Shown here: positions 6,915-10,631 of the stretch, piece after piece
Layout of the letters: every line of letters starts with the position of its first letter
Numbering within the stretch: the stretch's first letter is position 1
Assembly (NCBI GenBank): GCA_963802385.1
Contig: CAWDIO010000008.1
Location: 242,755 to 306,754, forward strand
Length of the DNA stretch: 64,000 nucleotides
Reading direction: 5' to 3'
DNA from: an uncultured Acidimicrobiales bacterium
Lineage (GTDB): Bacteria; Actinomycetota; Acidimicrobiia; Acidimicrobiales; VFJN01
Program-made: the position numbers and the translations under genes
The notes under the pieces: model-generated
Told to the model about the DNA's origin: nothing
The model's database searches: none
The model's input: only the letters and a program-made list of their open reading frames with translations

Positions 6915-9900
6915 TCAACGGAAGTCCCGACTGCGGACGGCGGCCTTGATGGGGAGCGCCTCGATGCGCTCGGCCAGGACGTTGGTCACCCCGTCGACCC
7001 GTTCCAGCCGGCCCCGCACCAGCAACGCGGGAGCGGTGCGGACCACCCGACGGTGATGGGCCCAGCAGCCCTTGGACACCACGATGTTGAGCAGGCCGGT
7101 CTCGTCCTCCAGGTTGAGGAACGTGGTGCCCCCGGCCGTGGCCGGGCGCTGGCGGTGGGTGACCACCCCGGCCACCGTGACCCGGGAGCCGTGGTCGTGG
7201 TCGGCCAGGCCGACCGCCGTGGCCACCCCCAGGTCGTCGAGCAGGTGGCGGACGAAGCGGGTGGGATGGCCCTCGGGGCTCACGCCCGTGGCCCACAGGT
7301 CGGCGCGGGCCTCGTCGATGGGATCGAGCCCCGGCAGCCGGGGCGCGTCCACCCCGGTGACGATGCCGTCGAGCCGGTCGGCGCCGGCATGGGCCACCGC
7401 CCCCGCCACCCACAGGGCCCGGCGCCGGTCCAACCCGAAGCAGCCCAGCGCCCCGGCCGTGGCCAGGGCCTCCAGCTGGGCGACGCTGAGCCCGGGCACC
7501 CGGCGCACCAGGTCCTCGGGGCTGGCGTAGGGACCACCCGCCTCCCGCTCGGCCACGATGCGCTCGGCCAGGTCGGTCCCCAGGCCCCGCACGGACTCCA
7601 GCCCGATGCGCACGACCGGCCCACCCCTCCCCCACGTCTCCGGCGGCGCCCCCACCCCCGGCGCCCGACCACATCGCCCCCACCCCCCGCTCCGTTCCCC
7701 CCGAGCACCGGTCGAGCCCACCGGGCCGCTCCGATCCCCCGCCCCCGGGGCAGCGGCCGAGCCGCGGGGCCGCCCTGCTCGCCCGCAGCACCGGCCGAAC
7801 CACCAGATCCGCCCTGCTCCCCCGCAGCACCGGCCGAGCCCGCGACCGAGACGGCGGAGTCGCCCTGGTCTCCCGGGGCGCCGTCGGAGGCTGTGGGGTC
7901 GCCCTGGGGGTGGGGGGCGTCGAGGCCCGGTGGCTCGGAGGGTGGTTCCAGGGTGGCGCCGACGCCGGAGCGGGCCAGGTCGGGGGTGCGCACCTCGACG
8001 CCGTGGCGGCGGGCGTCCTGGGTGAGCGAGTGGGGTGAGTAGAAGCCCATGGGCTGGGCGTTGAGCAGGGCCGCGCAGAAGGCGGCCGGGTAGTACCGCT
8101 TGAGCCACGAGGAGGCGTACACCAGGTAGGCGAAGCTCACCGAGTGGCTCTCGGGGAAGCCGTAGCTGGCGAACGCGGCCAGCTTGTCCCAGATGAGGTC
8201 GGCCACCTCGCCCGTGATCCCGTTGGCGGCCATGCCCTCGTACAGCCGGTGCCGCAGCCGGCCCATGCGCTCGTGGCTGCGCTTGGACGCCATGGCCTGG
8301 CGCAGCTGGTCGGCCTCGCCCGGCGTGAACCCCGCGGCATCGATGGCCATCTGCATGAGCTGCTCCTGGAACAGGGGCACGCCCAGGGTCTTGTGCAGGG
8401 CGTTCTCCAGCAGCGGGTGCAGGTAGGTGGGCTTCTCCAGGCCCTTGCGCCGGCGGATGTAGGGGTGCACCGACCCGCCCTGGATAGGCCCGGGGCGGAT
8501 GAGCGCCACCTCCACCACCAGGTCGTAGAACGTCTCCGGCCGCAGGCGGGGCAGCGTGGCCATCTGGGCCCGGGACTCGACCTGGAACACGCCGATCGAG
8601 TCGGCCCGGCACAGCATGGCGTAGACCTCGGGGTCCTGGGGCAGCGTGGCCAGGTCGACCACCTCGCCGTGGGCCTCTCGCACCAGGTCGATGGTGCCGT
8701 GCAACGCCTCCAGCATGCCCAGGCCCAGCAGGTCGAACTTGACGAGGCCCACGGCCGCGCAGTCGTCCTTGTCCCACTGGAGCACCGTGCGCAGGGGCAC
8801 GGTCTCCTCCCCGGCCGGCCCGCCCTCCGCCTCGACGCCGTCCCGGATCGAGGCCTTGCCCTGGAAGCGGGCCCACTCGACCGGGCACACCTCGATGATG
8901 GGCCGGTCGCAGATGACCATGCCGCCCGAGTGGATGCCCAGGTGACGGGGCGCCCGCTCGACCTCCCGGGCCAGGCTCAGCACGGACTCGGGGATGTCGT
9001 GGCCGCTCTCGGCGGTGGTGGACGCCACGGTCGACCACATGTCCATCTGCTTGGACCAGGCGTCCTGCTGGCCCGGCGAGTAGCCCATCGCCTTGGCCAT
9101 GTCCCGCACCGCCGAGCGGGCCCGGTAGCTGATGACGTTGGCCACCTGGGCCGCGTGCAGCCGGCCGTGGCGCCGGTACACGTACTGGATGGCCTCCTCC
9201 CGGCGGCCGCTCTCGATGTCGATGTCGATGTCGGGCGGGCCGTCGCGCTCGGGCGACAGGAAGCGCTCGAACAGCAGGCCGAGCGACACCGCGTCGGCGT
9301 TGGTGATGCCCAGCGCGTAGCAGACCGCCGAGTTGGCGGCGCTGCCCCGGCCCTGGCAGAGGATGTTGGACCGGGTGCAGAACTCGACGATGTCCCACAC
9401 CACCAGGAAGTAGCCGGGGAACCCCAGCGCCTCGATGACGTCGAGCTCGTGGTCGACCTGGTCCCACGCCCGGGGGTTCTGCTCGCGGGGGCCGTAGCGC
9501 CGGAGGGCGCCCTGGCCCACCAGCCGGCGCAGGTAGGCCATCTCGTCGAGCCCGTCGGGGCAGGGGAAGGGCGGCAGCCGGGGCGCCACCAGCGCCAGGT
9601 CGAAGGCGCAGGCCCGGCCCAGCTCGGCCGCCCGCTCGACCGCCCCGGGCCAGCGGGCGAAGCGCCGGGCCTGCTCGTCGCCCGAGCGCAGGTGGGCGGT
9701 GCCGGCCGCCGGCAGCCAGCCGGCCAGGTCGTCCAGGCTGCGCCGGGCCCGCACCGCGGCCAGGGCGGTGGCCAGGCGGCGCCGGTCGGGCGCGGCGTAG
9801 TGGACGTTGTTGGTGGCCACCAGGCCCACCCCGGCCTCGACCGCCAGCCGGGCCAGGCCGTCGTTGCGGACCGAGTCGACCGGGTCGCCGTGGTCGCACA

Positions 9901-10603
9901 GCTCGACCACCACGTTGCCGGCGCCGAAGCAGTCGACGAGGTGCCCCAGCTCGCGGGCCGCGGCCGCCGGGCCGTGCTCCAGCAGCGACCGGGGCACCGC
10001 CCCCTTGCGGCAGCCGGTGAGCACCAGCCAGTGGTCACCGTGCGCGGCCGACCAGTCGATGCCCGAGTAGTCCGGCTTGCCCTTCTCCCGCCCCGCCAGG
10101 TGGCCGGCGCTGAGGGCGGCCGCCAGCCGGGCGTAACCGGCCGGGTTGCGGGCCAGCACCAGCAGGTGGGCGCCCTCGGGATCGGCCTGGCCGTTCTGGG
10201 GGGCGCTCAGCCCCAGCGACAGCTCGGCCCCGAACACGGTGGGGACCCCCAGGGCCCGTGCCGCCTCCGCGAAGCGGACCACCCCGTAGAGCCCGTCGTG
10301 GTCGGTGAGGGCGAGCGCCTGCAGGTCGAGGCGAGCGGCCTCCTCCACCAGCTCCTCGGGGTGGCTGGCCCCGTCGAGGAAGCTGAAGTTGGAGTGGCAG
10401 TGCAGCTCGGCGTAGGGGGTGGCGCTGGCCTGGCGCCGGAAGTGGGCGGGCGGCTCGTACTCGGACCGGCGGGCCGACCAGGCCGGGCTGTCGCCCCCGT
10501 TGGCCCCCTCCGGCACCGGGGAGGGCCGGAGGTCGCGGCGCGGGCGGTCGGACAGCGCCCGCTCGATCTCCTTCCACGGCACGATGGGGTTGTTGAAGCC
10601 CAC
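6915..10603 (-). CDS. dnaE2: error-prone DNA polymerase III alpha-like DnaE2 (ImuC), one apparent frameshift in low-complexity insert
   Basis: ORFs 7280..10708 and 6915..9899 cover the PHP domain (YAELHCHSNFSFLDGAS), polymerase core and C-terminal HhH/OB region (VRIGLESVRGLGTDLAERIVAE); N-terminus VGFNNPIVPWKEIERALS gives a GTG start at about 10603; frame change inside a P/G/A/S/E-rich insert at about 7650-7850. Confidence 0.9.
7750..7848. repeat. imperfect ~39-bp tandem repeat (about 2.5 copies) inside dnaE2 low-complexity insert
   Basis: cgccctgctcgcccgcagcaccggccgaacc... at 7771-7809 repeated as cgccctgctcccccgcagcaccggccgagcc... at 7810-7848; encodes repeated SAGAAGEQGG segments on the minus strand. 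Confidence 0.7.
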
Positions 10604-10617
10604 GCCCGCCACTATAG

Positions 10618-10631
10618 CGAACGTATGTACG
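10618..10631 (-). promoter_or_regulatory. LexA (Cheo-type SOS) box upstream of dnaE2
   Basis: cgaacgtatgtacg = GAAC-N4-GTAC, one mismatch to actinobacterial GAAC-N4-GTTC; lies 6-15 nt upstream of the dnaE2 GTG; minus strand reads CGTACATACGTTCG-CTATAGT-GGCGGGCGTG, so a -10-like TATAGT sits just before the start codon (short or leaderless transcript). Confidence 0.6.

Follow-up and report, generated by a model that had tools for sequence, protein, structure and literature searches.

The locus examined here raises the question of whether a polymerase gene that is spread over two reading frames in the deposited sequence still specifies one protein, and of what occupies the place where the frame changes. 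The locus is dnaE2 (imuC) of an Acidimicrobiales bacterium, located on the minus strand at 10603–6915 of the 64,000-nt stretch of DNA that we analyzed as a whole (positions 242,755–306,754 of contig CAWDIO010000008.1), hereafter called the window. Taken as a whole, the reading that we consider probable is that of an SOS-controlled dnaE2 with a tolerated repeat loop and an artefactual frameshift, and a single full-length protein of ~1229 amino acids (aa) is probably made in the living cell.

The identity of the gene as DnaE2, which the original prediction had proposed from the letters and their translations, was borne out by the NCBIfam profile NF004225 (error-prone DNA polymerase) and by Pfam domain matches. 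This Pol III alpha-type polymerase is distributed over two reading frames, A and B. The NF004225 profile matched residues 61–887 of frame A at profile positions 3–807 with 1187 bits (cutoff 939), and thus frame A alone lies above the curated cutoff; residues 26–261 of frame B matched profile positions 811–1047. The Pfam domains PHP, DNA_pol3_alpha and finger were found in frame A, and HHH_6 and an OB fold (tRNA_anti-codon) in frame B, which ends with a TGA stop codon at 6917–6915. The domain order PHP, palm/thumb, fingers, HhH and OB is therefore complete, but in two frames as deposited, and one polypeptide with all of the DnaE2 domains needs one extra base at ~7764–7775. Because the NF004225 profile is contiguous across the break, the stretch between the two frames counts as an insertion when compared with the family. 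The parts of the gene are as follows.

7769–10603, minus strand: 5′ part of dnaE2 in frame A, with the N-terminal extension, PHP, palm/thumb/fingers and the first half of the linker (NF004225, Pfam, orthologs)
6915–7769, minus strand: 3′ part of dnaE2 in frame B, with the second half of the linker, HhH, OB and the stop (NF004225, Pfam, dN/dS, the ratio of nonsynonymous to synonymous substitution rates)
7617–7945, minus strand: low-complexity linker between the strand ...ATLE and VVRIGL, 329 nt, not divisible by 3 (translation, alignment with Taq)
7687–7840, minus strand: core tandem array of 39-nt (13-codon) units encoding a peptide of approximately GSAGAAGEQGGSG (repeat finder families D1 and D2; Tandem Repeats Finder, TRF)
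7843–7922, minus strand: older, more degenerate 39-nt copies (DAPHPQGDPTAS / DGAPGDQGDSAVS; TRF period 39, 2.1 copies, 68% matches)
7764–7775, minus strand: putative one-base loss in GGCGGCCCCGC at the junction of units 2 and 3, frame A to frame B (repeat register and match to P0001)
7617–7700, minus strand: clade-conserved C-terminal part of the linker, ERSGGWGRCGRAPGVGAPPETWGRGGP, in frame B (alignment of P0001–P0005)

An insert of ~100 aa relative to minimal DnaE2 proteins had been predicted at this place, and 110 residues were found there in the repaired reading, preceded by ...GATLE and followed by VVRIGLES, the VRIGL/HhH motif. These residues include 32 Gly, 18 Ala, 15 Pro and 11 Ser, among others; G, A, P, S, D and E together make up 79% of the insert and hydrophobic residues 7%. 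The predicted tandem repeat of ~39 bp is present, but not in ~2.5 copies: TRF reported a period of 39 with 3.8 copies at 7840–7687 (score 166) under relaxed parameters, its default settings having missed the 39-nt period, and weaker, older copies were detected in addition. The array consists of unit 1 (7840–7802), unit 2 (7801–7764, 38 nt), unit 3 (7763–7719, 45 nt) and unit 4 (7718–7680), all on the minus strand. Units 1 and 2 show 94% identity over 32 nt (repeat family D1), and homologous units, SAGAHGDRxGP, are carried by the ortholog P0001. Most of the insert is a decayed array of one 13-codon unit. The tail of the linker is kept in P0001–P0005 and, as APPETWGxGGPA, across Acidimicrobiales. 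No canonical G3+N1-7 motif occurs within dnaE2, and the idea of a G-quadruplex was rejected.

The repeat register locates the change of frame. Units 1 and 2 read GSAGAAGEQGG in frame A, and units 3 and 4 give a like peptide only in frame B, namely GSAAAPGAGDRSGPV / GSAAAPGAGDRSGP and GSTGARGERSGGW. Frame B past the break fits GDRSGP...RRGGWERC of P0001, and below 7763 it agrees with ...AHGDRSGPAASAGRERGES...GDRRGGWERCGRAPGVGAPPETWGRGGPA of P0001 and with EERSGGWGRCRRAPGVGAPPETWGRGGPV of P0002. The apparent frameshift had been predicted to lie inside the insert; this was confirmed, with the frame switching at the junction between the 38-nt unit 2 and unit 3. The simplest account of the frame change is one missing base in GGCGGCCCCGC at ~7764–7775. 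A plot of GC content at third codon positions (GC3) favoured the third frame at 7710–7800; we dismissed this signal as a composition artefact of GGN codons because both the homology to P0001 and the repeat register back frame B.

Comparison with relatives shows how variable this loop is. Across 158 related loci the linker is 13–115 aa long, and that of the window is the longest at 362 nt (~121 codons). Measured from MGFY to VRIGL, the spacing is 41–184 aa (median 61) in 108 proteins among the 120 best protein hits, and the window ranks third with 142. The expectation that a typical DnaE2 has only a short linker holds for the Mycobacteriales type (15 aa after RTPDL), but not for close relatives, where 34–115 aa are common; Acidimicrobiales linkers are typically 34–40 residues long and end in the conserved APPETWGxGGPA. 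Close relatives with equal insert length and no repeats, which the original prediction had named as the contrary outcome, were not seen. The loop measures 34 aa in L019, 44 in P0005, 59 in P0002, 63 in P0003 and P0004, and 114 in P0001, as compared with 121 in the window. Homologous units of the 39-nt type occur in a different number in P0001, and in fewer copies or not at all in P0002–P0005 and L019; in L019, the flanking DNA is 95% identical to that of the window while the loop has 34 aa. Unit number thus differs between close relatives, as in a coding tandem repeat of the variable number type (variable number tandem repeat, VNTR). The suggestion that the insert is slippage-prone is supported, since copy number and linker length differ sharply among relatives that are 88–96% identical. 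Unrelated tandem repeats occupy the same spot in P0038, P0048, P0097, L025, L071, L103 and L163. The long loop is a hypervariable feature of the whole clade and does not single out the window gene.

Individual loops differ in their content. In L163, a relative with 95.8% identity, the loop repeat (4800–4900) consists of 3 x 33 nt encoding ATLEPPSDPPD, and one 34-nt unit creates a stop. L082 (3845–3952) and L083 (2898–2963) contain a palindromic element of ~108 nt with 54-nt arms and sub-repeats CGAGGCRATGGGTTCC, which is read in frame within the DnaE2 loop; this element explains the peptide RGNGxR..EAMA..HCL shared by P0010, P0012, P0014, P0015, P0022 and P0030. A second variable low-complexity loop of DnaE2 lies at ~8790–8880 on the minus strand (WARFQGKASIRDGVEAEGGPAGEETVPLRTVLQWDKDD) and is much longer in P0008; the window and L001 differ there by a 3-nt indel at 8821, and its counterparts in the P0003 model described below (residues 550–581 and 602–622) have low confidence values.

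The position of the insert was then related to structure. In Taq Pol III alpha (2HPI), the residues corresponding to the insert flanks are 878 and 885, ~6 residues apart, and they form a tight hairpin directly ahead of HhH. For P0003, 52 aligned sequences were used for an AlphaFold model, which has a mean predicted local distance difference test (pLDDT) score of 68 and a predicted template modelling (pTM) score of 0.49. Its variable stretch (residues 891–915) was modelled as coil without secondary structure at pLDDT <50, and its conserved tail (residues 927–938) had values of 76–89. By the Taq alignment and this model, the insert would be an intrinsically disordered loop exposed at the surface, at the tip of the beta-hairpin preceding HhH. 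Conservation is confined to its last ~25 residues (GGWGRC...APPETWGRGGP), which probably pack on the protein. The loop behaves as a coding minisatellite tolerated by the fold and not as a new domain, and we saw no evidence of a gained function. In the mechanism that we propose, the loop would grow by replication slippage or unequal recombination of the 39-bp unit, and it would serve as a disordered tether that is tolerated and that drifts in length through slippage. In the literature, no description of a loop insertion at this position of DnaE2 was found; a 2026 survey of bacterial polymerases contains no mention of insertion, disordered, intein, frameshift or low-complexity.

With the place of the frame change fixed, its cause was considered. 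The frame break most likely arose when the consensus of a long-read metagenome assembly was miscalled within a GC-rich repeat. A technical error, which is the most likely source, comes close to the mis-assembled repeat region that the original prediction had offered as an alternative. All of the 158 relatives are in frame across the linker, and the split into two frames is therefore no conserved device. No stop occurs in the 261 codons past the break, and their dN/dS against L001 and L019 is 0.10–0.14, compared with 0.22–0.25 upstream; this downstream region is under strong purifying selection.

One-base breaks also occur elsewhere in the window. A GC3 frame-plot screen of the window gave four coding-phase changes without a nearby stop, and at least three other one-base frame breaks were found in conserved genes of the 64 kb, two of which are contradicted by L162. 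This contig, named in the short-read style (k141), shares 97.3% identity with the window across 3978 nt and differs from it by exactly two indels, namely single extra window bases at 35216 and 33358, both within genes. The extra A at 35216 splits a class I S-adenosylmethionine methyltransferase gene (34984–35713, minus strand); the repaired methyltransferase is covered end to end by >100 homologs, the best of them with 97% identity. The extra G at 33358 lies in the gene downstream of a cyclase-family gene, where a GC3 phase change was also seen. A PhoU/TrkA_C gene (2034–3093, minus strand) is broken at ~2293, such that positions 1–12 and 13–62 of its second TrkA_C profile match in different frames; L163 is without the extra base at this break and encodes an intact 417-aa protein there. 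Upstream of glutamate dehydrogenase (23536–22292), a small open reading frame (ORF) was noted at 23990–22287 on the minus strand, which runs for 568 codons without a stop, spans all of gdh and has no Pfam match; another indel that removed a stop may account for it.

Related assemblies behave in the same way. In L163, a related ENA assembly contig whose name follows the Flye style, dnaE2 is also split in the linker, at another base and in another repeat, and ~24 one-base indels separate L163 from the window in imuB alone. C-terminal-only DnaE2 ORFs of 232–694 aa (P0249, P0256, P0257, P0274, P0289, P0300, P0307, P0331, P0332 and P0340) were observed inside ENA/NCBI contigs of 190–850 kb, which suggests that broken dnaE2 calls are common in long metagenome assemblies of the clade.

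The strongest alternative is that the one-base deletion is real, so that dnaE2 would be a recent pseudogene, or would yield a core without HhH/OB followed by an untranslated rest, and the mutasome would be inactivated. The deposited assembly does carry the frameshift (its gene call, P0007, corresponds to the ORF of frame A), tandem repeats, like G/C runs, are hot spots of mutation, and the related contig L163 is frame-broken in the linker as well. Against this, the 3′ part has not decayed, the relatives are intact without exception, the SOS box of the intact imuA′ and imuB genes is perfect, and the further breaks in the same assembly include two that the 97%-identical short-read contig contradicts. 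We consider a real inactivating deletion unlikely.

A variant of this idea, starting from the independent one-base breaks that the window and L163 carry in the same loop, is that real frame breaks recur there and that the dnaE2 linker is a mutational switch turning the polymerase off, and possibly on, in subpopulations. If true, inducible mutagenesis itself would be under the control of a contingency locus; we regard this as very improbable. Still less credible to us is a functional frame change by a programmed −1 ribosomal frameshift, by transcriptional slippage or by a phase-variable ON/OFF switch of the polymerase. The change from A to B does need a −1 shift, and frame A has the heptamer G GGG GGT (X XXY YYZ) at 7688, where slippage would still give the conserved GGWGRC... 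continuation; two related assemblies moreover have independent frame breaks in the linker. However, the layout is not conserved, as the 158 relatives each read the linker in a single frame; the repeat register puts the shift at 7764–7775, ~80 nt upstream of the heptamer; and Rfam found no frameshift element. As for phase variation, the shift site has no long homopolymer tract (the longest run is C4), and the locus falls outside the definition of a phase-variable contingency locus because copy-number slippage of a 39-nt unit cannot alter the frame. Least credible of all is a foreign or selfish element (an intein, an intron, or a palindromic element of the miniature inverted-repeat transposable element or repetitive extragenic palindromic type) that landed in dnaE2: the insertion point in the DnaE2 profile is sharp (807/811) and L082 and L083 do hold a palindromic element in the loop, but the window insert has no significant inverted repeats, no Rfam match at E<=1 (introns included) and no intein-like Pfam domain, and it consists of 39-nt units in direct tandem order, to which those of P0001 are homologous.

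The remaining component of the reading is SOS control, and it depends on where the gene starts. We assign the start to GTG 10603, with which the beginnings of the orthologs P0001–P0010, (M/V)GFNNP, agree; nucleotide homology to the relatives L001 and L163 begins at 10633, with none further upstream. The database gene call for the window dnaE2, P0007 (100% identical, 1135 aa, on a contig of 448,559 bp), starts at an upstream ATG and continues in frame A without HhH or OB. Judged by the orthologs and by the end of homology at 10633, its N-terminal extension is spurious. This extension (10603–10708) puts the LexA box and the promoter inside the ORF. The elements upstream of the start are the following.

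10618–10631, no strand assigned: LexA (SOS) box, 14-mer CGAACGTATGTACG, in the promoter spacer and abutting the −10 (motif match)
10611–10638, minus strand: putative promoter, −35 TAGACC (10638–10633), 16-nt spacer, −10 TATAGT (10616–10611) (promoter scan)

A LexA box of the Cheo/actinobacterial type immediately upstream of the gene had been predicted, and the box GAACGTATGTAC was found at 10619–10630. The 14-mer CGAACGTATGTACG agrees with 9 of the 10 positions of the actinobacterial LexA consensus TCGAAC-N4-GTTCGA (PMC3381160), GTAC replacing GTTC. A box with such a GTAC half-site at S. venezuelae dnaE2 binds LexA in surface plasmon resonance (SPR), and the window box is near-identical to the SPR-validated dnaE2-2 box of that species, TCGAACGTCCGTAC (PMC9380542). 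The −35/−10 pair is the only promoter-like site in 10400–11000, and shuffled sequences gave 0. The box lies within the 16-nt spacer, so the operator overlaps the core promoter. The predicted geometry, with TATAGT ~7 nt before the GTG and a very short 5′ untranslated region, proved accurate: 7 nt (GGCGGGC) separate the −10 from GTG 10603, and in L001 and L163 this gap measures 6 nt. Because of the 7-nt gap, transcription is expected to start at or beside the start codon, and a Shine-Dalgarno sequence does not fit in. Actinobacteria commonly have leaderless mRNAs; the dnaE2 mRNA is predicted to be leaderless or nearly so.

The same layout recurs among orthologs. A box of the GAAC-N4-GTTC type lies 23–33 nt before the start in 26 of 47 ortholog loci, and five more have one with one mismatch. 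It is followed by a GATAnnnT-like −10 and by 6–9 nt to the start, and often a good TTGAC −35 lies ahead. Where dnaE2 comes directly after an upstream ORF, probably as part of an operon, the box is absent. The box/−10/start layout is the inherited, conserved norm for Acidimicrobiales dnaE2. In the mechanism proposed here, the promoter would be of the sigma-70 type and LexA bound in its spacer would occlude RNA polymerase; upon DNA damage, RecA-stimulated LexA cleavage would release a leaderless dnaE2 transcript, probably including the DUF1232 gene described below, and DnaE2 would act together with ImuA′ and ImuB.

Several points weigh against the reading of an SOS-controlled dnaE2 with a tolerated loop and an artefactual frameshift. 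That the missing base is a technical error is inferred from comparison and not shown. An exact-pattern scan of metagenome contigs over the unit 2/unit 3 junction gave 0 matches, and a protein-guided metagenome scan returned no linker-spanning sequence of the same strain, the best related loci being 84% identical. The sequencing technology is itself deduced only from the 448-kb contig, the naming of the relatives' contigs and the pattern of indels. The broken dnaE2 linker of L163 could mean that real frameshifts recur. In addition, the structural model of P0003 is of modest quality by the scores given above, the disorder of the loop is a prediction, and LexA binding and the transcription start at dnaE2 are likewise predicted.

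Partner and neighbouring genes on the same strand complete the locus.

17809–20072 including the box, minus strand: imuA′ (19945–19232) and imuB (19338–17809) (NF058630, Pfam IMS)
5577–6908, minus strand: gene for a DUF1232 membrane protein, starting 6 nt past the dnaE2 stop (Pfam DUF1232)

The genes imuA′ and imuB lie 7–9 kb from dnaE2. ImuA′ scored 133 bits against NF058630 (cutoff 65), and the ImuB-like ORF of 509 aa contains Pfam IMS. Ahead of them, a perfect palindromic LexA box, GAACAGGTGTTC, is located at 20061–20072 in the spacer between a TTGACG −35 and a GATCAT −10. This box is ~115 nt upstream of the imuA′ GTG (19945), and a short ORF in another frame begins with a GTG at 20049; the region upstream of imuA′ in this locus (17809–20085) may be either a 5′ leader or the site of yet another indel. 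On the other side of dnaE2, the order dnaE2–DUF1232 is the same in L001 and L163. The DUF1232 gene is probably co-transcribed with dnaE2, as its distance and conserved order suggest, and it may belong to the SOS-induced transcript. The DUF1232 protein has Ser-rich and acidic low-complexity stretches and many indels between relatives.

The locus was also compared with known systems. DnaE2/ImuC of Mycobacterium tuberculosis (Rv3370c), a member of the mutasome ImuA′-ImuB-DnaE2, belongs to the same family NF004225 and has the same order PHP-palm/thumb/fingers-HhH-OB; the window gene shares with it the N-terminal motif MGxxN..W.E.ER.L and the catalytic PDIDID. In M. tuberculosis, dnaE2 and imuA′B are LexA targets confirmed by chromatin immunoprecipitation (PMC3381160), and in the window, as there, the partners imuA′ and imuB are present and each unit has its own LexA box (PMC3381160). 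The two differ in that Mycobacteriales-type DnaE2 has a 15-aa hairpin, NASLAHATLEACGTE, between RTPDL and VRLGL, whereas the window has 121 codons, and in that the window promoter abuts the start codon. The S. venezuelae dnaE2 boxes (TCGTACGTACGTTC / TCGAACGTCCGTAC) are of the same motif type, including the GTAC half-site variant, but lie further from the start (−68 in the published table) and are in some cases intragenic, whereas the window has a single box in the spacer (PMC9380542). The Acidimicrobiales orthologs (P0001–P0005, L019 and L163) are 88–96% identical to the window gene outside the loop and share the synteny glyoxalase, dnaE2, DUF1232, acylphosphatase, PBP and MgtE, as well as the SOS box/−10/start layout and the APPETWGRGGP tail. 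Loop length and repeats differ in each of them, and the frame is broken only in the window and in L163, at a different position in each. With the coding minisatellites (VNTRs) and low-complexity loops of high-GC Actinobacteria, the window shares in-frame 39-nt units, a Gly/Ala/Pro/Ser-rich make-up, rapid copy-number change among close relatives and a surface-loop position.

Taken together, the feature is ordinary: both the gene and its type of regulation are known, the VNTR-like loop is hypervariable and specific to the lineage, and the current understanding of DnaE2 is unchanged by these findings. For the organism's annotation, the deposited dnaE2 model is wrong at both ends, as its start is too far upstream and swallows the promoter, and its protein ends in a frame-A tail. 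With approximately one frame-breaking indel per 10–20 kb in the window, frameshifts in this assembly are not to be taken for pseudogenes. For the family, the hairpin before the DnaE2 HhH is a recurrent hot spot of repeat expansion across Actinobacteria and a natural permissive site, usable for tagging or insertion. Finally, for Acidimicrobiales, a class in which experimental genetics is almost absent, the predicted leaderless promoter with its box in the spacer is a regulatory module that is both clean and conserved.

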